This document shows, piece by piece, positions 25,051 to 52,402 of a DNA stretch of 64,000 nt. The translations under genes and the position numbers were made by a program. The first letter of the stretch is position 1. The number at the start of each line of letters is the position of its first letter. This DNA comes from Escherichia phage phiWec186. Location: the sequence record LC739535.1. The stretch is one strand, 5' to 3'. Below the pieces are notes generated by a model. The model saw nothing but the letters and a program-made list of their open reading frames with translations. It searched no databases and was not told the origin of the DNA.

Positions 25051-25734
25051 ATGGAAAATATTAAAATTGGGGTTGGCGTTATCACTGTAGGTGTTCGTCC
25101 ACTTAAAGATTACATGGTTGCACCTGGTGTAGACTTCAAAGTGTTTCACGATCCCGATCGTAAAGGTGTAGCTTATGCTCGCAACCAATTAATGAAACAG
25201 TTCTACGATGAAGGTTTTGACTACTGGTTCATTTTTGACGATGATTGCTATCCGGTTAAACGTGGCTGGGAAGAATACTTCGTTAACCAGGCTGTCGAGA
25301 ATGGTTGGGACTTCTTCGGTATGCCAGAATACTTCAAAGATACTGTGATAGGTTGTTCTGGAGAAGTAGTCTTCTGGGAATTGGCTATGTGTCAGTTTGC
25401 AATGTATTCTCGTGCAACTGTTGAGACGATGGGTTATTTCCGTCCTTATACACACGGATATGGTTTCGAAGATGCAGAATGGACTAATCGTCTGAAAGCT
25501 TCAGGTTTGAATAAAGGACTCCAGGGCGTACCTTGTCCGATGCGCATTATGGCGTACATTCACCCCGACGATGTTTTCGGTGATAACCCTTTACCTTTTG
25601 CTAATCTGACAAAAGAAGAGAAAGAATCAGCAATCGGGATCAATTGGGAAGAATACAAACTGTCTTTGGAGGATATTAATAATGGCAAAACACACATCTC
25701 TTTTGAAGAGGCTGAAGGATATGGCGTTAAATAA
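25051..25734 (+). CDS. putative glycosyltransferase (GT-A fold)
   Basis: WFIFDDDCYP acidic motif after a beta-strand-rich N-terminus. Confidence 0.45.
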   Translation: MENIKIGVGVITVGVRPLKDYMVAPGVDFKVFHDPDRKGVAYARNQLMKQFYDEGFDYWFIFDDDCYPVKRGWEEYFVNQAVENGWDFFGMPEYFKDTVIGCSGEVVFWELAMCQFAMYSRATVETMGYFRPYTHGYGFEDAEWTNRLKASGLNKGLQGVPCPMRIMAYIHPDDVFGDNPLPFANLTKEEKESAIGINWEEYKLSLEDINNGKTHISFEEAEGYGVK

Positions 25735-26668
25735 GAAACCAACCCTACTGTGTGACAACAAATTCAACAGTGGTTGTGATTACCATCGCATTGTCATGCC
25801 ATTTTCTAACACAGAGATCAAGCCACGTACTGATGTACTGGTCTTTAACCGCATCTTCTCGAAGGGTGCTGATGAAGTAGCCAAACTTAAGCGCCAAGGT
25901 GTTAAGATTGTTGTAGATTTGGATGATTTCTATCAATTGAATCCAGAACACTACCTGGCGCATCTGTACGCGCCAAACACCCGCACAATCGTGGAAATGG
26001 TTAAAATAGCAGATATTGTCATTGTCACAACCGAATACCTGGCGTACAAAGTTCGTCACTTAAACTCTAACGTTGTTGTGATCCGAAATGCTCTACCGTT
26101 TGATGATGGTCAATTCACTCTCTCGAATGATCGTACTTCGGGTACGCCTATCATTTGGGCTGGAGGTGCGAGTCATGAACCGGATTTACGTTTGCTTTCA
26201 AACACTTTTGATGATAGTTTATTGTCTATCGCAGGGTATGAAGCGAGCAGCACAGTGACAGGGCAAGAGTGGGTTAAGATCCGCCGTAGTTTGCCTAATG
26301 CGCAGTATAAACCTGCTGTAGATTCTTTGAATCATTATATGTCTGCATACGATGGTCATGCTATGGCTGTAGCTCCGTTAGTAGATAACGACTTCAACCA
26401 TTGCAAGAGCAACCTGAAAGTATTAGAAGCTGGTGCTAAAGGCATTCCAATCGTTTGTTCTAAGGTATTACCTTACTACAACCCGATCGATGCCCGTGCA
26501 GTAACCTTCGCAGATAGCAAAGCAGAGTGGCACTATGAAGTTGTAAAACTACTTCGTAATCCAAACTACCGCGAAGATCGTGGACTGTTCTTGGCTGAAC
26601 ATGTTCGTACTCACTACAACTTGAAGGATGCAAACGAATTGCGTCGTCAAGTGATCGAAAGTCTGTAG
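25721..26668 (+). CDS. putative glycosyltransferase (GT-B-like), tandem paralog 1
   Basis: Homologous to the next gene (CDYHR..., IWAGGASHEPDL, KSNLKVLEAGAKGIPIVCS); start could also be the ATG at 25682. Confidence 0.5.
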   Translation: MALNKKPTLLCDNKFNSGCDYHRIVMPFSNTEIKPRTDVLVFNRIFSKGADEVAKLKRQGVKIVVDLDDFYQLNPEHYLAHLYAPNTRTIVEMVKIADIVIVTTEYLAYKVRHLNSNVVVIRNALPFDDGQFTLSNDRTSGTPIIWAGGASHEPDLRLLSNTFDDSLLSIAGYEASSTVTGQEWVKIRRSLPNAQYKPAVDSLNHYMSAYDGHAMAVAPLVDNDFNHCKSNLKVLEAGAKGIPIVCSKVLPYYNPIDARAVTFADSKAEWHYEVVKLLRNPNYREDRGLFLAEHVRTHYNLKDANELRRQVIESL

Positions 26669-26674
26669 GTGTTT

Positions 26675-27619
26675 ATGGGACAAATTATTCTTGACAATCG
26701 TGGTGGAAAAGAATATAGTGTCTGTGATTATCACCGAGTAATGCTGCCTTACACAAGGCAGTTCTCGGCCCAACCGTCACAGAACGTATATGTCTTTAAC
26801 GGTGTCCCTACGAAAGGGAAACAAGGCTTCATAGCCCTTAAGAGCATGGGCTTTAAGATGGTAATGGATTTGGATGACTCTTTAAACATTCCCCAAGGCC
26901 ATATGCTGGAAGACATTTTTGATGCAGGTATTCGAGAAGACTTGCAATGGTTCCTCGAACGCAGTGATCTTGTAACGACAACAACCCCTGCTCTCCAGGT
27001 GGAATTGTCCCAGTACAATCCTAACGTGCATATTATCCCAAATGGTTTACCGTTTGACGAGGATCAGTTTACGTTAACTCGTGATCGCTACTCCAAGTCC
27101 CCTGTAGTTTGGGCTGGAAGTGAAACACACAAGCAAGACCTGGCTCTACTACCGAACTTCGGGAGTGACTTAACGATTTGCGGATTCCGCAGAGATAGTG
27201 AAGTGTTAAGTAGTCAGCAATGGACCGATATACGTGAAAAGGTGGCTCCAAGCTGCAAATATGAGGCTGTTAGACCATATGAGAGCTATATGGAATCTTA
27301 CGACGGTCATCAGATAATGCTTGCACCTCTAACAGATAACATGTTTAATAACGCTAAGAGTAACCTGAAGATTCTGGAAGCAGGTGCCAAGGGTTTACCT
27401 TTAGTGTGTTCTCCCCGTGAAAACTACTTCACCGAAGAGTTTAAAGATTTGTTGTTCTTTGCAGAAACAAAAAGCGAGTGGGAAGATATTGTTAATTACC
27501 TGATCCAGTGTCCTGATGTGGGTATTGAAAAGGGATTAGCTTTAGCTAAGTATGTTCGTAAGCATTACCATATTGATGTGCTGAATGAACGCCGTAGATT
27601 ATTATTTGAGGAGTTATAA
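26675..27619 (+). CDS. putative glycosyltransferase (GT-B-like), tandem paralog 2
   Basis: VCDYHR..., VWAGSETHKQDL, KSNLKILEAGAKGLPLVCS; GTG at 26669 is an alternative start. Confidence 0.5.
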   Translation: MGQIILDNRGGKEYSVCDYHRVMLPYTRQFSAQPSQNVYVFNGVPTKGKQGFIALKSMGFKMVMDLDDSLNIPQGHMLEDIFDAGIREDLQWFLERSDLVTTTTPALQVELSQYNPNVHIIPNGLPFDEDQFTLTRDRYSKSPVVWAGSETHKQDLALLPNFGSDLTICGFRRDSEVLSSQQWTDIREKVAPSCKYEAVRPYESYMESYDGHQIMLAPLTDNMFNNAKSNLKILEAGAKGLPLVCSPRENYFTEEFKDLLFFAETKSEWEDIVNYLIQCPDVGIEKGLALAKYVRKHYHIDVLNERRRLLFEEL

Positions 27620-27897
27620 TGCTGAATACTTTTGATTTTGAATACACTACGAAAAGTGGTTTTAATGTTGTGGTGGAGGTTGACTATTACTACGAAGAGC
27701 CTGATCCACACTCACGGGAAAGTGATTGGGATTACCACGGCGGGTTACTGATCGACGGTATCCGTTTCTATGCGGGTCTGGAACAGATTAATGCGGAAGA
27801 CATTAACGTCACCGTAACAGAAATCGCATACCAATTCAAAAAACATATGGAGGCATTAGAAGCCGAGTACATGATGGAAACTAACGAATCATTTTAA
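27619..27897 (+). CDS. hypothetical acidic protein
   Basis: SD GAGGAG. Confidence 0.5.
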   Translation: MLNTFDFEYTTKSGFNVVVEVDYYYEEPDPHSRESDWDYHGGLLIDGIRFYAGLEQINAEDINVTVTEIAYQFKKHMEALEAEYMMETNESF

Positions 27898-27906
27898 CAG
27901 GAGAGG

Positions 27907-28551
27907 ATGACCATGAGGTTAGTACAAGGTTGGGGGATTAATGATATAGGTAGTATCCCTAAAACAGGTTTTATCCGAGTAGCTTACAGGTGTTGGTCAA
28001 GAGTTTTAGAAAGATCTCACAGTAAAGCTTGGAAGAATAAGTATCCTACATACAAGGATGTAACATGTTGCGAAGACTGGAAATATTTTTCAGTATTCAT
28101 GGACTGGATGGAGACACAACCTTGGGAAGGAAACGATTTGGATAAGGATTTGTTAGGAGATGGTAGCTTATACTCCCCTCAAACTTGTGTTTTTATACCT
28201 CCTGAAATAAATAAAGCTTTAGCTGCAAATAAAAAACAAGGAGAATTCTTATCTGGAGTCTGGTTTCAAACAAAGTCTAAAACTATGGTTAATAGTTTAA
28301 AACGTCCTTGGGCTGTTAAAGCCCATAGACAGGGTAGTAAAAAACCTGTATATTTAGGAAACTATTATTCAGAACAAGAAGCCCATAATGTGTGGTTGAC
28401 TACACGCGCAGAGGATATGTTATGGTGGTGCGACCAATGGGAAAACAACGAGAAGTATAATAAATCTTGGAAACCTGTGTTTAAAGAAGCTTTTAATAAG
28501 AAAGCTGAAGCTTATAGAGGGAGGATAAAAAATGTCATACATTGTCACTAA
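27907..28551 (+). CDS. AP2-domain homing-endonuclease-like protein, paralog 1
   Basis: Conserved N-terminal block (RCWS...CCEDWKYF...LDKDLLGDGSLYSPQTCVF) plus C-terminal AP2-like GVWFQ...LGNYYSEQEAHNVW; paralog at 33022. Confidence 0.45.
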   Translation: MTMRLVQGWGINDIGSIPKTGFIRVAYRCWSRVLERSHSKAWKNKYPTYKDVTCCEDWKYFSVFMDWMETQPWEGNDLDKDLLGDGSLYSPQTCVFIPPEINKALAANKKQGEFLSGVWFQTKSKTMVNSLKRPWAVKAHRQGSKKPVYLGNYYSEQEAHNVWLTTRAEDMLWWCDQWENNEKYNKSWKPVFKEAFNKKAEAYRGRIKNVIHCH

Positions 28552-30313
28552 GTATGGTTTTGATGTAGATTTAAGCAAAGAGGGGCACACAGGGTGTCCC
28601 CGTTGTATGAAGAACGGAAAAGATAGATCGAAGAATAACTTGATGTGTTATGGGTTGGATTCTAACGATGAGCATAAAGGAGCAAAATGCTTCGCGTGTG
28701 AGTACACAATCCCCAGCGTTGAATGGTTACGAGAGAATGGTGAAGTTTTAGAAGAAGAGGAGGATATTGTGGGTTCGGAATTTAATAAAGAGATTCATCG
28801 TAAGATTGTAGAAGAAACAGGCACTAACCCACGAGGCTACCGTGGGATCAAGGAAGAATATTCTAAATTCTACGGTGTACGTTACCAGTACAAACAAGAA
28901 GAATCTGGTGTTGTTGTGGAACATACTTTGTATCCAACAACTATCGGTAAAGAACTGGTAGGTTTTAAGCGTCGTATCCACCCTAAAGACTTCTCCAAGC
29001 CCATTGGTCAAGTAGGTAAAGATGTAGATTTGTTTGGACAAGTTCGTTTCCTTGAGCGTTCCCACACCGTAATCATTACTGGTGGTGAACATGATGCCTT
29101 GGCAGCATATCAAATGTTGGCAGAAGGTCTTGACAGGAAATATGAATTACCAGCAGTAGTTAGTGGCACAACTGGTGAAACCAGTATGTACAAACAGGTA
29201 CAGGCACAGTACCCTTTCTTTGAGAAGTTCAAGAAGATCATCGTCTGCATGGATAATGATAAGGCAGGTAAAGAAGCTTTTGAGAACATTGTGAAGGTGT
29301 TGCCTCGTAATAAAGTTTACCTGATGAAGATGGAACTGAAAGATGCTAATGAATACCTGGTGCAAGATAAAGCAAAAGATTTTGTGAAAGCTTATTGGGG
29401 TGCAAAACTTTATACCCCAGCGGGTGTTTATGCTTCGAACGAACTTTATGAAGCTGCAATGGACTGTCTGGATGCACAAGTGATCACCCTCCCTCCGTTC
29501 ATGCGTACTGCTGCGAACATGTTGGGTGGTGGTCTGGTAGAAGAAGAGATCACAGTTATTCTGGCTAAAACGAGTATCGGTAAGACGTTGATGGTCAATG
29601 AGATCACCAAACACATTATCGTGGCTCATCCAGAACATGTGCTGGGTATTCTGTCTCTGGAGGCAACGTATAAGAAATACTCCCGTAACCTTCTTTCTTC
29701 GTTCCTGCATATTCCTTTGCATCGTAAGACTAAGGAAGAAAAGGCTGCGATCCTGGAAGAGAACAAGGAAGCTATCAATAACTTCTACGTTCGTGAAGAT
29801 GGTTCTCCTCGCTTCTTTGTTTGTGATGATCGTGGTGCAGACATTGATTCAATCAAGGAGAAAGTGCTGGAGATGATCATCTACTTCGGCATTACCATCC
29901 TGGTAATTGACCCATACTCGGATCTGTTGTCGGGGATGAGTGTTCAGGAACAAGAAGAGTTGGCAACGTGGTTGAAGCGCATCATGAAAGAATACGGCAT
30001 CACGATCATTGTAATCTCGCACGTTAAGAAAGCTGCCAACAATGGTAACGAACACTTAACAGAAGATGATGCAATGGGTAGTAGCTTCTTGGCTAAAGGC
30101 GCAGGTATTACACTGGCACTGGAACGAGATAAGGCTAACGATGACCCCGTACTTAGAAACACAACTTTTTGTTATATTCTCAAAAACCGAGAGTTTTCAG
30201 AAACTGGTCCGGCTGGGGAGTTTTATTACGATATTAAAACTGCCACGCTACACGACAAAGCACAGTATTTTGCTAACCCTGATAATGCAGGTGGTGCAGA
30301 AGGCGCGTATTGA
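28532..30313 (+). CDS. DNA primase/helicase (T7 gp4-like)
   Basis: N-terminal Zn finger CPRCM...CFACEY, TOPRIM-like IIVCMDNDKAGKEA, DnaB-type Walker A AKTSIGKT. Confidence 0.8.
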   Translation: MSYIVTKYGFDVDLSKEGHTGCPRCMKNGKDRSKNNLMCYGLDSNDEHKGAKCFACEYTIPSVEWLRENGEVLEEEEDIVGSEFNKEIHRKIVEETGTNPRGYRGIKEEYSKFYGVRYQYKQEESGVVVEHTLYPTTIGKELVGFKRRIHPKDFSKPIGQVGKDVDLFGQVRFLERSHTVIITGGEHDALAAYQMLAEGLDRKYELPAVVSGTTGETSMYKQVQAQYPFFEKFKKIIVCMDNDKAGKEAFENIVKVLPRNKVYLMKMELKDANEYLVQDKAKDFVKAYWGAKLYTPAGVYASNELYEAAMDCLDAQVITLPPFMRTAANMLGGGLVEEEITVILAKTSIGKTLMVNEITKHIIVAHPEHVLGILSLEATYKKYSRNLLSSFLHIPLHRKTKEEKAAILEENKEAINNFYVREDGSPRFFVCDDRGADIDSIKEKVLEMIIYFGITILVIDPYSDLLSGMSVQEQEELATWLKRIMKEYGITIIVISHVKKAANNGNEHLTEDDAMGSSFLAKGAGITLALERDKANDDPVLRNTTFCYILKNREFSETGPAGEFYYDIKTATLHDKAQYFANPDNAGGAEGAY

Positions 30314-30321
30314 TTCAGAAG

Positions 30322-30345
30322 GGGCGCAAGCCCCTCTTGACTTTT
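30322..30345 (+). terminator. hairpin, possible terminator
   Basis: aggggc-gcaa-gcccct then T-rich; overlaps a TTGACT. Confidence 0.35.
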
Positions 30346-30396
30346 GATTGAGGAATGTGATACCCTTCAGGTTGAGTTACATAATATGGAGGACTA

Positions 30397-32994
30397 ATGA
30401 GTAAGTTTACATGGGATATTGAAGCAACCGCATTACTGAACAATGACACAATTGATTACCTGGCAAGCCCTTATCGATTGAAAGACACTTTTGGTATGCA
30501 TTGTATTTGTCTGGAAAACCACGAAACAGGAGAGATCATTGCTTTTCACGATGGTCCTAAGTACATTTTCGATGGTCGTCCTTATGAAGAGTCTGACGGT
30601 AAGTACACTTATGTACTGAAGGAGTATGTGGCACAAGAATACACACACTTTCCTCTGTCAGATTTTCCAGATTTTGTCAACCATACAGGCAAGTTCGCAG
30701 ATAAGCCTGAATACCTCGTAGAAATGGCTGTAGCCCACAACGGCATCAACTATGACCACTTGGCAGTTAAGCTTTACTACGGGCTGAATTACAGCGTTAA
30801 ATACAATACTTGGGGTGATTCGAAAGTTAAGATTATTGATACCCTGATCCTTAGTAAAGTATTGAACCCTGATCGCAAGGTTGATGGTAAACCTGGGCAC
30901 AACTTGAATGCTCTTTCTAAAAAAGCTGGCGGTGATGTTAAGATTGATTTCCGTAAAGAGCTTCCAGAAGGAGAACGATTCAAGACTTTCGCAGCAGATA
31001 TGTTGTACTACTGTATCTACGACAACAAGGCAACTACAGCAGTATATTATTACCTCATGGAAGAATGGGGCGATTATAAGAAGTGGCAAGAGCCGTTCGA
31101 CTTGGAGCAACGTATTGCGGATATCATCACCCGTCAAGAACACCGTGGCTTTAAGTTCAACATGCAACAAGCTGAACAGAACCTGGAATTCTTGGACAAA
31201 GAAATGGAACGTCTACGTTTGTTGGTAGAGCCTATTCTTCCACCTAAGCCAGCGACTAAAGGTTATCTGAAAGATTTTATTCCGCCGAAACTTCAAATCA
31301 AGAAGAACGGTGAGCCAACAAACCATATCATCAGGTTTGCGGAGAAACATGGCGGTAGCCTTGAAGAACGTGAAGGTGATTGGTGGCTGCTTGTTTTAGA
31401 TAAAGAGTTTAAGTTACCGATCTCAAGTGAAGAACCTATTTGTGAACCTACCATTCCGTCTACGCTGAATGATACGACACACATTAAAAACTGGCTTGTA
31501 GGTTTAGGTTGGGTTCCGTCTGAATATAAAGACAAGGATTTGACGCTTAAATCTGGTTCGAAGATCAAGAAAGATCCTGACGACTTAGAGAAAGGTATTC
31601 TGTCTTATGTCAAACAGACCTTGGAAAGCAATTTCTGTAATGACCGTTGCGAACACTTACAAGCCGATGCTGAAACACTGGAGCTTAGAATCCGTGAACG
31701 TCTGGCTAAAGGGAAAGGTCGTGGTCTTAAAGTGCTGACCAACCCATGCTTCACGAAGGGGCAGGAGAAAGAGATTTGTCCTAATCTTGAAGCACTGGGC
31801 GAGAAGTTCCCGTATGCCACACAGATTGTGCAGTACCTGACGTACAAACATCGTCGAAACTCTATTTTGGGCGGTGGTGCAGATTGGGAAGACGATGAGG
31901 AAGATCAAGAATACGACAAAGGTTTCTTGGCAGCAGTTCGTGCCGATGGTCGTATAGCGACTCCAGCGGCTACATGTGACGCTGCAACATCTCGTATGAA
32001 GCATCGCTCTGTTGCTAACGTTCCTCGCGTTACATCGTTGTTTGGGTACGAAATGCGTAACTTGTTTGGGGTAGAAACACCGCGTTACTTCCAGATCGGT
32101 TATGACTTTGACTCCTTGGAAGCAAAGATTGAGTCGCATTATTGTTGGCGCTACGAACCGGAGCCTCATGAATACTGTAACGCTCTCTTGTTGGAGAAGC
32201 CTAACGATGTTCATACCATGATGGCAAGACGTATCACAGAAACTATTGGACGTAAGTTTGAACGTAGTCCAGCTAAATCTGTTAAATACGGGATTACATA
32301 TGGAGCACAGGCAGACAAAGTTGCTAAGACAATTGGTAGTGATAAGTACACAGGACAACTGGTATTTGATGCGTTCTGGGAAGCAGCTTTCCCGTTAGCA
32401 CAACTGAAAGAGAAGTTGAATGCTTTCTGGGTTAACACTGGCAAGCAGTATGTTCTCGGTATTGATGGACGTAAAGTTCCAACACGATCTGCACATGCAA
32501 TCTTAAACTCCTTGTTCCAAAGTGGCGGGGTTATCTGTGCCAAGCGTGCAATGGTAATCTATGACGATATGATTGAAGAGGAAGGTTTAGCTGTTGACTT
32601 CTTCGTAGATGACTGGAAGAATAAAGAGTTCGTTCAGCAAATGATTGCTTACCACGATGAAGCGCAGCTTGAAGTATCTCGTAACTTGGTGGAATTTAAA
32701 TGGTTCTCCAAAGAGTCTTTAGGTTGGGTTAAAGTGGATGACGAGAAAGAGCAGAAGAAAATAGATGCGGAATGTCTTGCAAAAGCTAATGAATGGAAGC
32801 ATAATAAAGAGAAAGAGACAGGGCAGATTTGGGCTAACGTTCACGAATCACCTAAAGGTGGTTGGTTTACCGCTTATAGTCGTGCCGGAGAACTTGCTTC
32901 TCTTGCTGTTATCAAAGCTGGGGAATATTACAAACTAAACGTTCAGCTTACCGCTGGATACGATGTTGGTAGTTCCTGGGCCAGTTGTCATTGA
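30397..32994 (+). CDS. DNA polymerase, family A (T7-type)
   Basis: Exo I WDIEATAL near the N-terminus, motif B RSPAKSVKYGITYGA, motif C IAYHDEAQ. Confidence 0.85.
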   Translation: MSKFTWDIEATALLNNDTIDYLASPYRLKDTFGMHCICLENHETGEIIAFHDGPKYIFDGRPYEESDGKYTYVLKEYVAQEYTHFPLSDFPDFVNHTGKFADKPEYLVEMAVAHNGINYDHLAVKLYYGLNYSVKYNTWGDSKVKIIDTLILSKVLNPDRKVDGKPGHNLNALSKKAGGDVKIDFRKELPEGERFKTFAADMLYYCIYDNKATTAVYYYLMEEWGDYKKWQEPFDLEQRIADIITRQEHRGFKFNMQQAEQNLEFLDKEMERLRLLVEPILPPKPATKGYLKDFIPPKLQIKKNGEPTNHIIRFAEKHGGSLEEREGDWWLLVLDKEFKLPISSEEPICEPTIPSTLNDTTHIKNWLVGLGWVPSEYKDKDLTLKSGSKIKKDPDDLEKGILSYVKQTLESNFCNDRCEHLQADAETLELRIRERLAKGKGRGLKVLTNPCFTKGQEKEICPNLEALGEKFPYATQIVQYLTYKHRRNSILGGGADWEDDEEDQEYDKGFLAAVRADGRIATPAATCDAATSRMKHRSVANVPRVTSLFGYEMRNLFGVETPRYFQIGYDFDSLEAKIESHYCWRYEPEPHEYCNALLLEKPNDVHTMMARRITETIGRKFERSPAKSVKYGITYGAQADKVAKTIGSDKYTGQLVFDAFWEAAFPLAQLKEKLNAFWVNTGKQYVLGIDGRKVPTRSAHAILNSLFQSGGVICAKRAMVIYDDMIEEEGLAVDFFVDDWKNKEFVQQMIAYHDEAQLEVSRNLVEFKWFSKESLGWVKVDDEKEQKKIDAECLAKANEWKHNKEKETGQIWANVHESPKGGWFTAYSRAGELASLAVIKAGEYYKLNVQLTAGYDVGSSWASCH

Positions 32995-33021
32995 CATTTA
33001 CTTGATTTTAAAGGAGTTTTT

Positions 33022-33618
33022 ATGCTTACTGTATATGGTGAAGGTATTAATGATCTGGAGGGTGAGAGCACTCTACCTGGTAGTAAGAAACTGACTCCTC
33101 ATTATATGAAATGGATGGCTATGTTGGGGAGGTGTTACTCCCCTTGCCAACAAGAACGTGATCCTTGTTATCATGGGGTGCTGGTCTGTGAAGAATGGAA
33201 GCTGTTTTCCAACTTCTATGCTTGGTTAAAAACTTGGGAAGAGTGGGAGAAATTAGAATTAGACAAGGATATTATTGGAGGGGGAGTTTACTCCCCTAAC
33301 ACCTGCCTTTTAGTAACAGGAGATCTTAACAAGTTCTTAGCTTATAGAGTGAGTAAAAGATCTCATGGAACTATGGTAGGTTTACATTACGAAAAAGATC
33401 GTAAGAAGTATAAAGCCAATATTAAAACAGGCTCACGCATGGTAACACTTGGACGTTTTGATACTGAACTTGAGGCGCATCTTTGTTGGTTGAAAGCTAA
33501 AGCAGAACAACTTACAAAGTTTTTTGAAACAGAAGACAAAAGAGTTGTTCCACATCTTAAAGCATTGTATAATGATATGCTTGAACATATTGAACAACGT
33601 AAGGAGTGGACACGATAG
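33022..33618 (+). CDS. AP2-domain homing-endonuclease-like protein, paralog 2
   Basis: LGRCYS...VCEEWKLF...LDKDIIGGGVYSPNTCLLV plus AP2-like GLHYEK...LGRFDTELEAHLCW. Confidence 0.45.
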   Translation: MLTVYGEGINDLEGESTLPGSKKLTPHYMKWMAMLGRCYSPCQQERDPCYHGVLVCEEWKLFSNFYAWLKTWEEWEKLELDKDIIGGGVYSPNTCLLVTGDLNKFLAYRVSKRSHGTMVGLHYEKDRKKYKANIKTGSRMVTLGRFDTELEAHLCWLKAKAEQLTKFFETEDKRVVPHLKALYNDMLEHIEQRKEWTR

Positions 33619-33626
33619 GAGGGTAT

Positions 33627-33821
33627 ATGCGTTACGATTTAGATTACTTTGGTATGCCTTACCTACCCGATGAGTTCGCAGATGAGGCGGAAGATCGTGA
33701 GTGGGATGATGGGGATATCCGTTGTTGGTCTTGTGGTAAAGACATGTCTTACGAACAACACATGCACAACGATGGCTTCTGTCCGCACTGTCAGAATGAA
33801 ATAGATTTAGAGGAGGACTAA
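33627..33821 (+). CDS. small zinc-ribbon protein
   Basis: CWSCG...CPHCQ; ATG at 33627 after AGGAGGG. Confidence 0.45.
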   Translation: MRYDLDYFGMPYLPDEFADEAEDREWDDGDIRCWSCGKDMSYEQHMHNDGFCPHCQNEIDLEED

Positions 33822-33823
33822 TA

Positions 33824-33991
33824 ATGACTTCCGGTATTATGATCTGTTATAAGATCGTTCGTATTGTTGGGGATGAAGTTACTACTCGCCACTTTATGAT
33901 TGAAAATCATGCTGATGAGGTGTATAATGATTGGCTGGAACAAGGCGGATACGACTTCGTATCTAAAGAAACTTTCCACTTAGAAGTATAA
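33824..33991 (+). CDS. hypothetical small protein
   Basis: 55 aa ORF not in the track; SD GAGGAGGA. Confidence 0.4.
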   Translation: MTSGIMICYKIVRIVGDEVTTRHFMIENHADEVYNDWLEQGGYDFVSKETFHLEV

Positions 33992-34000
33992 GGAGAAGAA

Positions 34001-34219
34001 ATGCGTAAATTAGTGAGTTTTAATGTTTCAATTCTGATTGATGAACAAAATGAAGATGTTATTAAAGGTCTTGCAAATAAGATTGAAGGTGGAATGACGG
34101 AAGCAGAAGTATGGGAAGAATGTGCTCGACTTTATGAAGCAGGTGTTCTTGAAGTCTTGGAAGATGAGATTAATATGGATGATGTTGTTAAAGTAACTGT
34201 GGAGCGTATCAATGACTAA
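34001..34219 (+). CDS. hypothetical protein
   Basis: SD AAGGAGAAG. Confidence 0.5.
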   Translation: MRKLVSFNVSILIDEQNEDVIKGLANKIEGGMTEAEVWEECARLYEAGVLEVLEDEINMDDVVKVTVERIND

Positions 34220-34817
34220 ATCAAGCCAGATTACCCTTGCCCGTGAGATCCTTACTGTTCTTAAGATTGCTGATCCTCGTTCAATCCTGGCAGGTGGCGC
34301 GGTCCGTGATTGGTACATGCTGGACATTGCAGGGCGAGATCTGGACTTCTATACATCATTCCAGCCACACCGAAACATAGATCAGGTGATTACGTTTATC
34401 AAAGAGAATCTTAAAGGCACCAATGTAACCGTGTTAGGTCAGGAGGAAATGGGTGACAACTATGAGTCTATGATCGGACTGAAACATGTGTTTGAGTTTA
34501 TCCGTGATGATCAGGTTTGCAATCTCATGATCATGGAACCATGCTACATGAGCAACATCCTGAAAAACTTTGATCTTTCTGTTTGCAAAGCTTCGTTTGA
34601 TGGTGTAGAATATTACTTCGATCCTGACTTCCTGGTAACAGATGCAACAAATATTTGCTTCGTGCATAAGGATGTTAAAGTGGATGCGAAACACGTCCGT
34701 AAGATCGCGGATCGCTTCCCGCACATGCGTTTTGTACGTGACTTGGATGTGCAGCGTCGCACGCAAGATAAGGCTCTACCAAAGTTCGAAGATACTGATG
34801 AAGATATTCCTTGGTAA
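34212..34817 (+). CDS. Pol-beta-superfamily nucleotidyltransferase (CCA-adding / poly(A) polymerase head-domain-like)
   Basis: GGAVRD and RDLDFY motifs (LAGGAVRDWYMLDIAGRDLDFY). Confidence 0.6.
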   Translation: MTKSSQITLAREILTVLKIADPRSILAGGAVRDWYMLDIAGRDLDFYTSFQPHRNIDQVITFIKENLKGTNVTVLGQEEMGDNYESMIGLKHVFEFIRDDQVCNLMIMEPCYMSNILKNFDLSVCKASFDGVEYYFDPDFLVTDATNICFVHKDVKVDAKHVRKIADRFPHMRFVRDLDVQRRTQDKALPKFEDTDEDIPW

Positions 34818-34861
34818 TAAAGCTTGACTTTCACTAATCTTTTATGATAGGATGACAATCA

Positions 34862-35257
34862 ATGACTGAACGTTCAAAAGTAAGTGTTGAAACTGAATAC
34901 AGCGAATACCTGAACAGTTTGATACTTGTTGAAAAAGATGTAATAGGTCTGGATAACTCGTTCTTCTTTCAAATCCTGATAGGTAAGGGTGGACACCGAA
35001 AGTTATTCTCTCGCGTGGAAGACTCTGACCTATCCGAAACTGAAATAACGGTTAAAGAACTTATTAGCCTACAGGATAACATCCGAAAAGTTATTGACAC
35101 AGCCGGGAACGCTGTTACAATAAAACTCGACATGCATTCTGTGCAATTTGTTCATTTTCCGAATGGAGAAATTGGAGTTGGAATAGGTAAAGGTAAGTAC
35201 CTTTTAGAAAAAGAAAACGCAGAGCTTCTTCGTGAGTTCTGTGCAAAAACAATGTGA
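34862..35257 (+). CDS. hypothetical protein
   Basis: 131 aa ORF; weak SD. Confidence 0.45.
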   Translation: MTERSKVSVETEYSEYLNSLILVEKDVIGLDNSFFFQILIGKGGHRKLFSRVEDSDLSETEITVKELISLQDNIRKVIDTAGNAVTIKLDMHSVQFVHFPNGEIGVGIGKGKYLLEKENAELLREFCAKTM

Positions 35258-35274
35258 ATATAGAGGAGATAATA

Positions 35275-36183
35275 ATGTCCGTAATTAATACTGAAACTGA
35301 TCGTAAAGGCAAAACTGTAACTTATGCAACTGGTGTTGTAGACTACGTTAAACTGGATAAATTCGCAGAGCCTAAAACCTTCCAATGGGATGGTAAGTCG
35401 ATTGTTTCTACTCACCGTGCTTCACTCGTTCTGAAAGAAAAGGGTGCCAAGCAGGATGCAAAAGGGACGTGGATTAGCCTGGGTGATATTGAACTGAAAG
35501 AAGGTTACGAAAATCTTCAGGTTAAAGATGGTGATACTTGGATCACTATCGAAAAAGGTGTTGAAGTTAGTATTGATATCGACAAAGTTGATACCAAAGG
35601 CGACAAAACTTACTACAATACCAAGAAATCTCGTATCACTGTTCTTTCTACTGAAGGTGTTCAGAAGAAAGAAAATAAATCTGGTGGGACTGGCGTTTCA
35701 GGTAATACTGGAAACAAACAATCCTTCAAAAAACGTGATACCGTAGGTCTTGAGACTGGTCATGCAGTTAACGGAGCTTTGGAACTGATTCGTAATGGTG
35801 TGAAAGGTGAAGCGTTTGATATTGCAGGTGTGGTTCAGTCTGCTACTGTGACTCTGAAAGCTGAAGTGGCTAAAGAGCGTGGCGTAGATATCAGTGATTA
35901 TGATCTGGGGGCTTCTGTTGGTCACGCTGTTCTGAATGCCTGTAAAGATCATTCCGGTAAGACTGTTTCGGTAGAAGATTTGATTGAAACTGCTCGTGAA
36001 GTTCTGGCACTTTCTGACAAGGTAGCTAATGCCATTCGTGGCGCAGCAGAACAACCTAAGAAAGAAGAAGCCAAGAAAGAGCCTAAGAAGGAAGAACCGA
36101 AGCAGGAGCCTAAACAAGAACCTGCTCCTCAACAAAATCCAGAAGAACCTCCAATGGACTTCGATGATGATATTCCATTCTGA
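35275..36183 (+). CDS. ssDNA-binding-like protein with E. coli SSB-type C-terminal tip
   Basis: Ends in PPMDFDDDIPF after a Pro/Glu/Lys-rich linker; ATG at 35275 after AGAGGAG. Confidence 0.55.
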   Translation: MSVINTETDRKGKTVTYATGVVDYVKLDKFAEPKTFQWDGKSIVSTHRASLVLKEKGAKQDAKGTWISLGDIELKEGYENLQVKDGDTWITIEKGVEVSIDIDKVDTKGDKTYYNTKKSRITVLSTEGVQKKENKSGGTGVSGNTGNKQSFKKRDTVGLETGHAVNGALELIRNGVKGEAFDIAGVVQSATVTLKAEVAKERGVDISDYDLGASVGHAVLNACKDHSGKTVSVEDLIETAREVLALSDKVANAIRGAAEQPKKEEAKKEPKKEEPKQEPKQEPAPQQNPEEPPMDFDDDIPF

Positions 36184-36211
36184 TCTTATTGATTTATAAA
36201 GAGTTTTTATA

Positions 36212-36247
36212 AAAGAAAAGGGAACCTTTGCGGGTTCCCTTTTTTAT
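36212..36247. terminator. bidirectional rho-independent terminator at the strand switch
   Basis: A-run, gggaacc/ggttccc hairpin, T-run; lies between convergent genes. Confidence 0.7.
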
Positions 36248-38922
36248 TAGTCGTAATATTTCAAACCTGTAATAAACTTCGATCCCCAATCCGCACTTGC
36301 GGCGGTGAACGTCAACATCCAAGTTGTAGCTGTACCAGTGAAGACCTCTCGTTGCACAGTACCATCAGTGTGGTAAATGTCCACGCCAGTATGTCCATTC
36401 TTAGGAATAGTGAAGGTAACAGCACTGGTAGTGTCTCGTGCATAAGAACAAACAAATGGTGTCCCCGCCCAGACTGGATTTGTCAAATCACCCATCTCAA
36501 GTTGTGGAACCCAAGCAATAAGACCTGCCGTACCATCTCCTGCGAAAGTGTCTGATCCACTTGCATTCAAAGCTATAATCTCATAGGTTATAGATGCTTG
36601 TTTGGCAACTGTCACTTTGTGTAGAATTACACGATACCAACCATTCCCCATATCGATTATGTTTGCATCTGCACCTGTAAATGTTCCAGCTACAAGATCA
36701 TAAGTCCCTTCGTTAATCTCATCTCCTGAAGTCAATTTGAGTTTCACTTTAGTGATCCCGTCTGGCTTCAAGAATACGGATGCCGCCCAGTGCTTACCTG
36801 CTGTAATATCAGAAGCTGTATTCACTGCTGATAAAATATGTTGTCCTGAAGTTGTAGAAGGTGTTAACTTGTAAGTGTTAGCCGTAGTTCCAATCGGAGA
36901 GTTGATTGTTGATGCTGTGACTGTCAAGTTCGTCTTCAACCACGGGGAAGCTGTTGTCAAGTTATTGTTGATAAAGATATGTGTACGGTTGGCTGCTACA
37001 ACACGTCTACCTTGTGGAGTTGTACCAACATATTCTAAAGGTGCTACGGGAGCAGAACTCTCTGTAGGTACAAGGATATCTCCAGAAGTCCTGGCATAAC
37101 GGTTACTCCTGTTGACCTTTACATCCACCGGAATAGTTTCTTGCGTCAAATCATAGTCCATCACAATCACCACAGCATTCACTGCGAGATAAGAACTATC
37201 TTCGGCAGTTACCACGCCTTGATAAGTTGCTCTACAACCAATACGACAATCTCCATCAGTAACCGCTGTAATAACGCCTGTAACGGGGTCAACTGTTGCT
37301 ACTGTAGGGTCGTTAGAGAAATACTCAACAACCATACCAGGGAGGTTTTCTGCCCCTGCTGGGGTTATTTCTGCCACCAATGTTTGCGTTGTCCCTTCAT
37401 CCATAGCTGAAAGACTTGGAGTATACACTTCCAACGTTGAAGCATAACCTCCAGAGCTATCTGATAAAGTTGTTCCTGCTGCATTCAGTGCTGTCATCCC
37501 CGCATCAAAACCACCTTCAGCCACAAACGTCATCAAACCAGAAGCAGATATTGTCATGTACGCTGGGGCAGATGTTGTGTAAGCTTCATTGAAGATTTTG
37601 GCTCCTGAAGGACTTACTGAATAGGTTAACTGTTTGCTCCCACCAACAATACAAATACCTAAAGAATCTGTAGTTAAACTGGTAGCCAACTCTGATCCTA
37701 AGATCGAATCTTGTGAAATAGGTGCGAACTTGTTAGAATTCAACGTCCCATTAAACAGAGGATTGGTCTTACCATCAACAGTAACACCAGAGTAAAACAG
37801 ATTACCATCGTAGACAAAGAAAGTTGCATGGTAGCCTAACTGGTTAGTCACATCCAGATTCTGACTGTGGACACTTGTTAGTTTGCTCATGTCCCAACTC
37901 GGAACACCTTCGGGCTTAAGAGGCTTCTCAACAACCAAAGGATCTGTTGCCAGAGATGCGTAACCAACACCTAAGTTTCCTGTGTAGTTTTTACCTACAG
38001 CCCACAAACTGTTATTAATACTTAAGAAGAAAGCGTGGCGACTCATTGGGAAACTCCATGCAGAGAAACCGCCAGAGAAGTTGCTTACTTTCGTATAAGT
38101 TGTCGCAGTGTTAGAACGTGCATACAAATAATTCGTTGTTCCAGTACCGCCAGAGGTATCTCCAATTACCAATGTCTGGGAAACTGTGTTAACGTAATCT
38201 TTCACATAAACTGTTTCGGTAGAAGATATAGTCGCAGTAACGAAAGCTGTTGTTGTACTGTTGTTACCTGCCATACCTTTGCTTGCACCGCAAACACGTA
38301 ATGAACCAACGTTGTTAAGGTAAGAACATTGGTTGTATCCTGCATCAAATGCTAAAGCAACAGAAGTTATTTGACGTGGACTTGGGATTTGGTTAGTATT
38401 ACTTGAACCAAGGCTCCCCACTGTGTTTTGTCCTGAACCATAAAGCACTCCATTGTTCATGAGCCACAAGGTATTATTATAACCCCCTTTAACCTCTTTC
38501 AGGTTGGCTAAGGTTATGATTGAGGTAATAGACGATGGGAAGCTGGTCCACGTAGTCATGCAAACATCAGCGCCGCCAGCGGCTGTAGATCCAACAAGAC
38601 CTGCTAACAAGCCAGCATACTGCCAACCACCACTTTGAAGCTTGATAACGAAGCAACGATCTGCCGGAAATATATCTTCTGCTGTTGTTGATGCCAAATG
38701 GAAGGTAGAGTATTTTGCTGTACGTGTGCCGTCAGCAATCTCTCCGAACACATTATCCCCTTGAGTGAATAAACGCCCATCGTTCAAGAGGAGAGCTAAA
38801 CTGGTTTTAGAGTTGCCAGAAGCGTCTGGGTAATCTAAAGTTATTACTTTCTTGATTATTCCTGCTGGAAGTGGAACTACACCTGTGCTGGTCATAATCA
38901 TCATTACTGGAATTGGAAACAT
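36247..38922 (-). CDS. tail fiber / adhesin-like protein
   Basis: 891 aa Ser/Thr/Gly-rich beta protein with an Ig-like segment; SD GGAGGA; location in the fiber cluster. Confidence 0.5.
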   Translation of the reverse strand: MFPIPVMMIMTSTGVVPLPAGIIKKVITLDYPDASGNSKTSLALLLNDGRLFTQGDNVFGEIADGTRTAKYSTFHLASTTAEDIFPADRCFVIKLQSGGWQYAGLLAGLVGSTAAGGADVCMTTWTSFPSSITSIITLANLKEVKGGYNNTLWLMNNGVLYGSGQNTVGSLGSSNTNQIPSPRQITSVALAFDAGYNQCSYLNNVGSLRVCGASKGMAGNNSTTTAFVTATISSTETVYVKDYVNTVSQTLVIGDTSGGTGTTNYLYARSNTATTYTKVSNFSGGFSAWSFPMSRHAFFLSINNSLWAVGKNYTGNLGVGYASLATDPLVVEKPLKPEGVPSWDMSKLTSVHSQNLDVTNQLGYHATFFVYDGNLFYSGVTVDGKTNPLFNGTLNSNKFAPISQDSILGSELATSLTTDSLGICIVGGSKQLTYSVSPSGAKIFNEAYTTSAPAYMTISASGLMTFVAEGGFDAGMTALNAAGTTLSDSSGGYASTLEVYTPSLSAMDEGTTQTLVAEITPAGAENLPGMVVEYFSNDPTVATVDPVTGVITAVTDGDCRIGCRATYQGVVTAEDSSYLAVNAVVIVMDYDLTQETIPVDVKVNRSNRYARTSGDILVPTESSAPVAPLEYVGTTPQGRRVVAANRTHIFINNNLTTASPWLKTNLTVTASTINSPIGTTANTYKLTPSTTSGQHILSAVNTASDITAGKHWAASVFLKPDGITKVKLKLTSGDEINEGTYDLVAGTFTGADANIIDMGNGWYRVILHKVTVAKQASITYEIIALNASGSDTFAGDGTAGLIAWVPQLEMGDLTNPVWAGTPFVCSYARDTTSAVTFTIPKNGHTGVDIYHTDGTVQREVFTGTATTWMLTFTAASADWGSKFITGLKYYD

Positions 38923-51781: not shown

Positions 51782-52402
51782 TTATACTCCTGTCATAGCC
51801 GTAAGGCCGAAGTTATTACTTGTTGAAAGAACTGAACCAGAATCGCTAACCATCATGCGTTCAACAGCAGTTTCCGTCGCCCACTCATTCCACCAAGTAG
51901 AATATGTATTTTCAGGCAGACCAACAAAGTTAATGAAGCGGTACAGACGGTTAGAAGATTCAACAATGGTATATGCTTCACAAGTGATTGCTGCATTATC
52001 ATCGCCAGCTTCTGGGTAAATAAATTCTTCAGAAGGTTGGGTGTTGAAACTTGTTGTTACTGTGTCTGCGCCTACTGTGACAACAACATCCATATTATAA
52101 TAGCGTTGGTCACGATCGTAATAAGATTTGTAAGAATTGATTGTGTCAATATAAATGTTCTTGGCAATCTCTGCCAGGAAGATTCGGTCCACAATATCTT
52201 TCTTTCGTGCTACACCGATAATCTCTTGCAGGTAAGGAACACCGAACGTGGTGTTAAGGAACCATTCCCCACGATATGTTTTGAGGGTGATCCCTAATGT
52301 CTGCGCTGCAATCTCGGTACGAGTGGTTGTCAAAACAAGATCCCCATCATCCATGATGAGGTCGTTGTCTGATCCCAATTTTAAATCATATGGGATACCC
52401 AT
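51782..52402 (-). CDS. baseplate wedge protein (gpW/gp25-like, putative)
   Basis: Segment TRTEIAAQTLGITLKTYRGEWFLNTTFGVPYL resembles the GPW/gp25 family; follows the spike gene. Confidence 0.4.
   Translation of the reverse strand: MGIPYDLKLGSDNDLIMDDGDLVLTTTRTEIAAQTLGITLKTYRGEWFLNTTFGVPYLQEIIGVARKKDIVDRIFLAEIAKNIYIDTINSYKSYYDRDQRYYNMDVVVTVGADTVTTSFNTQPSEEFIYPEAGDDNAAITCEAYTIVESSNRLYRFINFVGLPENTYSTWWNEWATETAVERMMVSDSGSVLSTSNNFGLTAMTGV

Follow-up and report, generated by a model that had tools for sequence, protein, structure and literature searches.

Two related genes of Escherichia phage phiWec186, HEG-A and HEG-B, are likely to be free-standing members of the IPA-HNH class of homing endonuclease genes (HEGs), with products predicted to cleave DNA. 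They lie in a 64-kb stretch of record LC739535.1 (hereafter the window) that matches Escherichia phages phiWec179 and phiWec181 at 100% identity; these are two myoviruses of a proposed new genus in Stephanstirmvirinae, akin to phAPEC8 and phi92 (PMC12695924). All genes in the records of these two phages are labelled "hypothetical protein," and the paper describing them makes no mention of endonucleases (PMC12695924). Both HEGs are on the + strand: HEG-A between a 92-amino-acid (aa) gene on its 5' side and a Toprim+DnaB primase/helicase gene on its 3' side, HEG-B between a family-A DNA polymerase gene (5') and a small zinc-ribbon gene (3'). The original prediction, made from the sequence alone, had described two paralogs placed just upstream of the primase-helicase and just downstream of the polymerase, with a common Cys/Trp-rich N-terminal block containing an LDKD..GxYSP.TC motif and an AP2-like C-terminal segment. 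The placement is borne out by Pfam and phrog matches of the neighboring genes (table 1), the paralogy by 33% identity over 175 aa (E = 3e-28), and the two protein segments by the family data presented below. No third copy of the family was found in the window beyond HEG-A and HEG-B. A weak tblastn match of the AP2 segment at 52160–52249 (E = 0.029) was dismissed, there being no plausible open reading frame (ORF) at that place, where baseplate genes lie on the opposite strand.

The IPA-HNH class was set up from gp59, gp115–116, and gp209 of Vibrio phage ICP1 (Barth, Dunham and Seed 2023; PMC10448857). Its members combine an atypical N-terminal HNH-like domain, invisible to the Pfam HNH_3 profile, with a C-terminal AP2 domain; Rheinheimera Barbaviruses and Pseudomonas Flaumdraviruses have them in abundance, and 29% of them are close to DNA polymerase genes (PMC10448857). 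Both HEG-A and HEG-B match phrog_953, labelled "HNH endonuclease," and both find ICP1 gp59 (L005 27261–28076) by BLASTP, HEG-B with an E-value of 8e-21 (40% identity over 111 aa, including the CEEW and LDKDII motifs) and HEG-A with an E-value of 2e-13. Because they are direct homologs of gp59, we consider them new members of the class. Moreover, tblastn searches recovered lineages that the same paper names, the Rheinheimera Barbaviruses and Pseudomonas KIL phages (PMC10448857). The C-terminal segment shows the features of an AP2/ERF domain (PF00847), with a three-stranded antiparallel sheet packed on one helix and a match of the family profile; the direct Pfam scan gave a sub-threshold AP2 match in HEG-B only, and the NCBIfam scan of the two proteins gave no match. 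The N-terminal domain has no Pfam match in HEG-A, HEG-B, gp59, and 41 family members, as expected of IPA-HNH proteins. The family is very large, with 37,100 cluster representatives (50% identity clusters) at E ≤ 1e-3, yet Pfam contains no model for its N-terminal domain. In the wider family, some proteins contain two or three tandem N-terminal D-K-D/Y/N domains (e.g., a protein of 571 aa with three matched stretches), and in others the N-terminal domain is joined to an MqsA-like helix-turn-helix or to zinc-ribbon modules (DUF723/DUF4379).

The likeness to ICP1 gp59 extends to genomic position, since gp59 occupies the same place as HEG-B, directly after an rV5-type DNA polymerase gene. As in the IPA-HNH class generally, HEG-A and HEG-B are free-standing, patchily distributed genes beside essential genes, and they lie at a boundary of sequence mosaicism, a feature that figures in the very title of PMC10448857. 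They differ from gp59 in length (212 and 198 aa for HEG-A and HEG-B vs. 272 aa for gp59, which has an N-terminal extension) and in host lineage, the phiWec179-type Stephanstirmvirinae being new for the class.

Comparison with related phages gives base-precise junctions for both genes. Around HEG-A, phiWec188 and phiWec190 (93% identical) and PsgM04F (96% identical) align with the window up to position 27908 and then again from 28533, so that about 622 nucleotides (nt) of the window stand against 2 nt in these phages (blastn). The unoccupied site reads TTTTAACAGGAGAGGATT followed by GTG, the primase GTG start codon coming directly after the ribosome-binding site (RBS), and in phiWec188, PsgM04F, and phAPEC8 it consists of a 12-nt stop-to-start spacer free of any remnant. 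The RBS AGGAGAGG, which serves the primase/helicase gene in relatives without HEG-A, has been captured by HEG-A in the window, and the 3' end of HEG-A supplies another RBS, GAGGGAGG, located 7 nt ahead of a new primase ATG at 28532. Thus, the primase start codon is ATG in the window and GTG in all relatives lacking HEG-A. The last 20 nt of HEG-A overlap the start of the primase/helicase gene; this wedging between the RBS and the start codon of the primase gene is a placement not met in the passages of PMC10448857 consulted.

The strongest trace of movement lies in the primase/helicase gene itself. When compared with PsgM04F, 36 of its 81 mismatches fall in nt 1–120 and the next one only at nt 636, after 515 identical bases (hypergeometric P = 4e-21); identity is 73% over nt 1–135 and 100% over nt 136–600. 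The first 40 codons contain 21 synonymous and 7 nonsynonymous codon changes, and the same 5' stretch is unusually conserved (86–99%) among phages without HEG-A. On the other side, the left flank up to HEG-A shows background-level divergence from relatives only. Nucleotides 1–120 of the primase gene look like the footprint expected of a co-conversion tract, of a recoded target immune to cleavage, or of both, and this pattern of substitutions makes it probable that, in alleles free of HEG-A, the target of HEG-A lies within the initial ~120 nt of that gene. The asymmetric tract recalls T4 SegG and MobE (via PMC10448857), which are also free-standing between essential genes, with a donor tract on one side of the HEG and a cleavage site in the neighboring essential gene, where that of HEG-A is predicted too. 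SegG and MobE belong to other nuclease families (GIY-YIG and Mob-type HNH), and cleavage and co-conversion were demonstrated by experiment for the T4 systems, whereas their counterparts in HEG-A and HEG-B are deduced from comparative sequence. A second cluster of primase mismatches to PsgM04F (31 in the last 182 nt) is found at the 3' end of the gene, in window 30130–30313 (nt ~1600–1782). It adjoins the site, between primase and polymerase, of a T5orf172+DUF723 endonuclease gene present in PsgM04F and absent from the window, and may mark another HEG-associated recombination boundary.

HEG-A has a narrow distribution. Among ~128 related phage records, only those of phiWec179 and phiWec181 contain it, to which four metagenome contigs can be added at 99% identity (all called as 212-aa proteins); no further copy was found in the phage collection, and the viral contigs yielded one distant relative. 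The nearest other HEG-A relative (43% aa identity) overlaps the start of a primase/helicase homolog (38% aa identity) in an unrelated contig, that is, it has the same position despite a locus with no nucleotide similarity to that of the window. Because this relative also overlaps the start of a primase/helicase homolog, the HEG-A sub-lineage seems to have specialized for primase 5' ends, as the shared location suggests.

At the HEG-B site, a 620-nt unit stands in place of a GC-rich 24-nt terminator hairpin of phiWec188, PsgM04F, and phAPEC8, whose unoccupied sites read TGA-TGGTATGGGGCTTCGGCCCCTTTA-TAGGAGG and are remnant-free with an intact hairpin (GGGGCTTCGGCCCC followed by Ts). An ortholog with identical junctions is found in EF1-1, and others lie directly 3' of the polymerase gene in alia (Justusliebigvirus) and in Klebsiella phage KP2025. 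In total, HEG-B is present in 39 of ~128 related phage records, and its presence is polymorphic in both genera. Between the window and alia, nucleotide identity is 86.9% for HEG-B, compared with 66.5% for the primase, 73.1% for the polymerase, and 49.7% for the nucleotidyltransferase genes, and synonymous divergence (dS) is 0.55 for HEG-B and saturated for the flanking genes. HEG-B therefore has a much more recent common ancestor than the genomes that carry it, which argues for horizontal transfer. The ratio of nonsynonymous to synonymous divergence (dN/dS) is 0.08–0.27, indicating purifying selection and hence a protein that is maintained; the ORFs of both HEG-A and HEG-B are intact. A decayed form also exists: the polymerase–nucleotidyltransferase spacer of phi92 (locus L015, 1895–2031) is a 137-nt remnant of HEG-B that keeps 27/27 nt of the leader plus ATG and 13/13 nt at the 3' junction, the interior being gone. 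The HEG-B site is thus known in naive, occupied, and decayed states. A similar two-piece match to HEG-B, with 27% coverage, was seen in phage outra. As no cluster of substitutions flanks HEG-B and the polymerase 3' end shows no fixed differences between HEG-B-carrying and HEG-B-free genomes, its target can only be guessed at, the terminator hairpin or the adjoining polymerase 3' end being our candidates. AP2 domains tend to bind GC-rich motifs, according to PMC10448857.

A link of the N-terminal domain to nucleases comes from its predicted fold. A fold search with the model of residues 1–112 retrieved PacI. Fold searches with whole chains mostly brought up the AP2 domain and helical noise, and returned no nuclease. 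In the model, the domain closes with a beta-beta-alpha-metal-type unit bearing a near-invariant D-K-D...Y-S-P..C...N set (D77-K78-D79, Y87, C92, and N100 in HEG-A, in the 212-aa numbering). In 153 domain instances from representatives less than 50% identical, the HEG-B positions D81, K82, D83, Y90, and N103 retain their residue in 146, 147, 148, 150, and 146 cases, respectively, and all 136 motif-matched homologs have the Lys. PacI is a beta-beta-alpha-metal nuclease without a catalytic His, in which one Asp and one Asn hold the metal and a Tyr of the inter-strand loop substitutes for His (PMC5714182; PMC4081073); it belongs to group 20 of the His-Me finger nucleases (Jablonska et al. 2017). 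By analogy, a single metal ion would be bound by N103 and an Asp (D81 or D83), and the loop residue Y90, possibly together with K82, would fill the role of the missing His. Such a PacI-like mechanism is what we infer, and the idea that the family represents a second lineage of beta-beta-alpha-metal nucleases that do without the His as PacI does, with Y90 and/or K82 activating the nucleophile, is put forward tentatively, at somewhat less than even chances.

The resemblance with PacI (PDB 3m7k/3ldy) has clear limits, the identity being 18% only, with no sequence-level match. PacI has two Cys4 zinc sites per subunit, whereas the only Cys residues conserved across the HEG-A/HEG-B family are C56 and C95, with no Cys4 pattern. 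PacI is also a restriction enzyme that works as a dimer on an 8-bp palindrome and lacks an AP2 domain, unlike the AP2-bearing HEG-A and HEG-B, and we could document no PacI counterpart for the near-invariant Lys at the "His" position of the family. The other obvious comparison is with HNH_3 enzymes, the I-HmuI-type HNH-AP2 HEGs (PF13392; Magnani et al. 2004, via PMC5714182 and PMC10448857), which are likewise built of a small nuclease domain and an AP2 domain and have the same way of life. Even the spacing agrees, 21 residues separating H88 from N109 in ICP1 gp80 as they separate K82 from N103 in HEG-B. However, HNH_3 enzymes have a catalytic His where this family has a Lys, and the region preceding the beta-beta-alpha unit is helical in the family (Y..W..M..RC / CEEW..F.NF..W) while canonical HNH_3 proteins display a beta structure of the NUMOD4 type.

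Several results weigh against the homing endonuclease interpretation. His is absent from the canonical position (K82) in all 153 domain instances, of which 147 have Lys, and in all 157 closer homologs, and the roles given to Y90, in the loop between two strands, and to the near-invariant D81/D83 and N103 are assigned by secondary-structure position only. HEG-A and HEG-B have no match to Pfam HNH-family profiles at E ≤ 1, nor do the 41 family members at E ≤ 0.01. Sequence/profile searches of PDB chains retrieved AP2 domains only, and the N-terminal domain alone gave nothing but noise (deoxycytidine kinase and ferritin, E > 0.1). An hhalign comparison of the N-terminal profile with a genuine HNH_3 profile, made from homologs of ICP1 gp80, returned a probability of 0.35%; given this negative result, the HHsearch link to HNH described by Barth et al. 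(PMC10448857) was not reproduced with our shallow profiles. We found no donor for the recoded primase tract in the phage collection and no exact match in the viral contigs, and no substitution cluster next to HEG-B. Last, our literature search found no demonstration of cleavage by an IPA-HNH member, the only paper using the term being bioinformatic. Strict membership of the HNH family does not hold, since the His is missing at the catalytic position and the HNH_3 profile comparison is negative. The original prediction's reading of the genes as free-standing homing endonucleases is nevertheless supported by the base-precise indels, the homology with gp59, and the lack of intron RNA. Neither of the two outcomes that it had named as contrary to this reading was found: HEG-B (39 of ~128 records) and HEG-A (2 of ~128) do not behave as core genes devoid of polymorphism, both being absent from phiWec188, phiWec190, PsgM04F, and phAPEC8, and the N-terminal fold search did retrieve a nuclease, PacI.

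The main competing explanation is that HEG-A and HEG-B are nuclease-dead, sequence-specific DNA binders descended from HEGs, which would regulate transcription or replication of the replication operon or repress genes of the host or of competitors (CasPR/CapR-type), in which case their patchiness would reflect accessory-gene turnover. The missing catalytic His in all homologs examined and the lack of a sequence-level nuclease match speak in its favor, and there are precedents: Smad MH1 is an example of a His-Me finger that has lost catalysis and binds DNA (PMC5714182), and certain phage AP2 proteins, the CasPRs, have been shown to work solely as repressors (preprint 10.64898/2026.02.23.707548). 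Purifying selection, for its part, suits any maintained function. On the other hand, near-invariance of the PacI-type set (Asp, Asn, and loop Tyr) and of the Lys over ~37,000 representatives is unexpected in a pure DNA binder, and the mostly synonymous 120-nt tract beside HEG-A is predicted by break repair or immunity and left unexplained by regulation. HEG-B is also better conserved across genera than its essential neighbors, and the finding of one site empty, occupied, or decayed in different genomes fits the classic cycle that selfish elements go through. We thus regard loss of nuclease activity as unlikely, being disfavored by the invariant catalytic-type residues and the co-conversion-like tract.

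Two other scenarios can be considered. The enzymes could be active and serve chiefly in competition between phages or between phages and satellites, through marker exclusion or degradation of the replication genes of rivals, self-propagation being a side effect. Both genes adjoin essential replication genes conserved among competitors, and other related phages bear other selfish elements at neighboring sites. Marker exclusion of the T4 SegG type and the HEG-derived anti-satellite nucleases of ICP1 are both cited in PMC10448857. In addition, the six phiWec phages, including the Justusliebigvirus phiWec187, were grown on the same host strain and phiWec187 and phiWec179/181 come from the same pig-farm wastewater (PMC12695924). 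This scenario is hard to tell from homing by sequence data alone; the footprints observed, namely insertion at the target, a co-conversion tract, and horizontal spread of the gene, are nonetheless of the self-propagation type, and no satellite or defense context is seen around HEG-A or HEG-B, so that a primarily competitive role has in our estimate only about one chance in ten of being the better description. Less probable still is that HEG-A and HEG-B are ancestral, immobile accessory genes of the replication module, inherited vertically and lost repeatedly. Even between such distant lineages as ICP1 and KP2025, HEG-B-like genes share the place after the polymerase gene, a HEG-A-like gene precedes the primase gene in a contig whose primase is only 38% identical, and phi92 lost its copy by internal deletion. 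Yet the empty sites of phiWec188, PsgM04F, and phAPEC8 are remnant-free, the HEG-B dS of 0.55 across genera is far below that of the saturated flanks and incompatible with co-divergence, and HEG-A is limited to one sub-lineage, other members of the genus being without it.

Under the homing endonuclease interpretation, the following sequence of events can be proposed. During co-infection with a related HEG-free phage, the enzyme would bind through its AP2 domain, which would provide sequence-specific DNA recognition, and cut the naive allele near the insertion point. The break would then be repaired by recombination with the HEG-carrying genome, the HEG and adjoining sequence being copied in. 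For HEG-A, the recoded primase 5' stretch would be the co-conversion tract and would make the HEG-A allele immune to cutting; the gene would take over the primase RBS and return a new RBS and ATG from its own 3' end. Because HEG-A holds these signals of the essential primase gene, an imprecise loss of HEG-A may now be lethal to the phage. For HEG-B, insertion would destroy its own presumed target, be it the hairpin or the polymerase 3' end. The polymerase gene of the window is uninterrupted, no Rfam match, intron or other, was found in window 27000–35000, and promoter-like sites are not in excess over chance (11 found vs. 14.3 expected); for these reasons, HEG-A and HEG-B are considered free-standing and probably co-transcribed with the replication genes.

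Table 1. Features of the HEG-A and HEG-B loci (positions in the window).
Feature	Coordinates	Strand	Evidence
RBS AGGAGAGG, now used by HEG-A	27899..27906	+	Junction alignment with empty site
HEG-A, putative free-standing IPA-HNH/AP2 HEG, 212 aa	27913..28551	+	ORF; phrog_953 E = 1e-51; ICP1 gp59 homolog; absent from phiWec188, PsgM04F, phAPEC8
HEG-A, alternative start ATG 27907, 214 aa	27907..28551	+	Mechanical ORF list
HEG-A N-terminal nuclease-like domain	27913..28233	+	Aligned to HEG-B N-terminal domain; local HMM match E = 2.8e-38
HEG-A AP2-like DNA-binding segment	28255..28419	+	Aligned to HEG-B AP2 segment; Pfam AP2 PF00847 matches in several HEG-A homologs
Replacement primase/helicase RBS GAGGGAGG, inside HEG-A 3' end	28517..28524	+	Sequence reading
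Putative recoded/co-converted primase/helicase 5' tract	28532..28651	+	Mismatch cluster vs. PsgM04F
Primase/helicase gene, putative HEG-A target gene	28532..30313	+	Pfam Toprim_2 + DnaB_C; phrog_239 E = 5e-162
Family-A DNA polymerase gene, stop codon directly before the HEG-B unit	30397..32994	+	Pfam DNA_pol_A; phrog_17 E = 3.5e-109
Inserted HEG-B unit of leader, RBS (AAGGAG, 33011–33016), and ORF	32995..33614	+	blastn breakpoints; junction alignments
HEG-B, putative free-standing IPA-HNH/AP2 HEG, 198 aa	33022..33618	+	ORF; phrog_953 E = 1e-69; ICP1 gp59 homolog; orthologs in EF1-1, alia, KP2025
HEG-B N-terminal nuclease-like domain (beta-beta-alpha unit, residues 78–107)	33022..33351	+	
HEG-B D81-K82-D83; Y90; N103	33262..33270; 33289..33291; 33328..33330	+	
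HEG-B AP2 DNA-binding domain, three beta strands + helix, residues ~118–168	33373..33525	+	

The coordinates first proposed are retained for HEG-B, while the start given for HEG-A (27907) is not. The true start is most likely the ATG at 27913, because the RBS AGGAGAGG abuts 27907 and is 6 nt away from 27913, and because the Met encoded there lines up with HEG-B M1 and the proteins of independent gene calls are 212 aa long. On the right side of the locus, the stop codon of HEG-B (TAG) is part of the RBS of the zinc-ribbon gene, TAGGAGG. In the mechanical ORF list, this zinc-ribbon gene (phrog_25582; 33606–33821) begins at GTG 33606 and overlaps HEG-B; the RBS and the homologs indicate that its real start is the ATG at 33627. 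Upstream of HEG-A, two adjacent glycosyltransferase-like ORFs (25682–26668 and 26669–27619; 328 and 316 aa) are visibly alike, with common motifs such as CDYHR.., DLDD, VIW/VVWAGG, and KSNLK.LEAGAKG.P.VCS, and resemble a tandem duplication. Further downstream, the sign of the GC skew flips at ~36000–36250, at the border between the replication module (+ strand) and the tail genes (− strand), a switch in transcription direction.

HEG-A and HEG-B are not the only mobile sequences around these genes, and in this group of phages selfish elements concentrate in the replication module, a hotspot for them. The T5orf172+DUF723 endonuclease gene of PsgM04F lies at L001 4695–5588. The EF1-1 polymerase is interrupted between ESHY and CWRYEP by a 245-aa intein (L003 7866–8599; from CVPMD to ITITGN, followed by C) with a LAGLIDADG-like FLEGFLIADGY motif, and at that very position the KP2025 polymerase gene holds a group I intron (RF00028, 61.6 bits, E = 3.9e-15; L008 3704–4065), where the window polymerase is continuous (codons at ~32143–32145). 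The polymerase product in a metagenome contig with HEG-A at 99% identity is 1189 aa long. As for the provenance of some of the phages compared, PsgM04F (OR584014), recorded on Pseudomonas coronafaciens, is 96% identical to the present Escherichia coli phage over the replication module, and several records titled "Campylobacter phage" share 98% identity with E. coli Justusliebigviruses; these host labels look doubtful.

Elements of this kind have already been described in other phages, and it is the clarity of their traces of movement that is unusual here. In terms of annotation, the name IPA-HNH/AP2 HEG can now be given to two "hypothetical proteins" of phiWec179/181 and the HEG-A start can be corrected, and the insertions would explain the mosaicism of the replication module in the proposed new Stephanstirmvirinae genus. 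The locus is also a compact natural experiment, in which HEG-carrying and HEG-free genomes are otherwise 93–100% identical around the sites. In particular, phiWec179 and phiWec188/PsgM04F make up a natural substrate pair for a first biochemical test of a very abundant family of His-less nucleases; if our interpretation is true, this pair narrows the recognition and cleavage site of HEG-A to a 120-nt stretch of the primase gene, and both chemistry and specificity become directly testable. More generally, selfish nuclease genes would shuffle pieces of essential replication genes among coliphages that are candidates for therapy.

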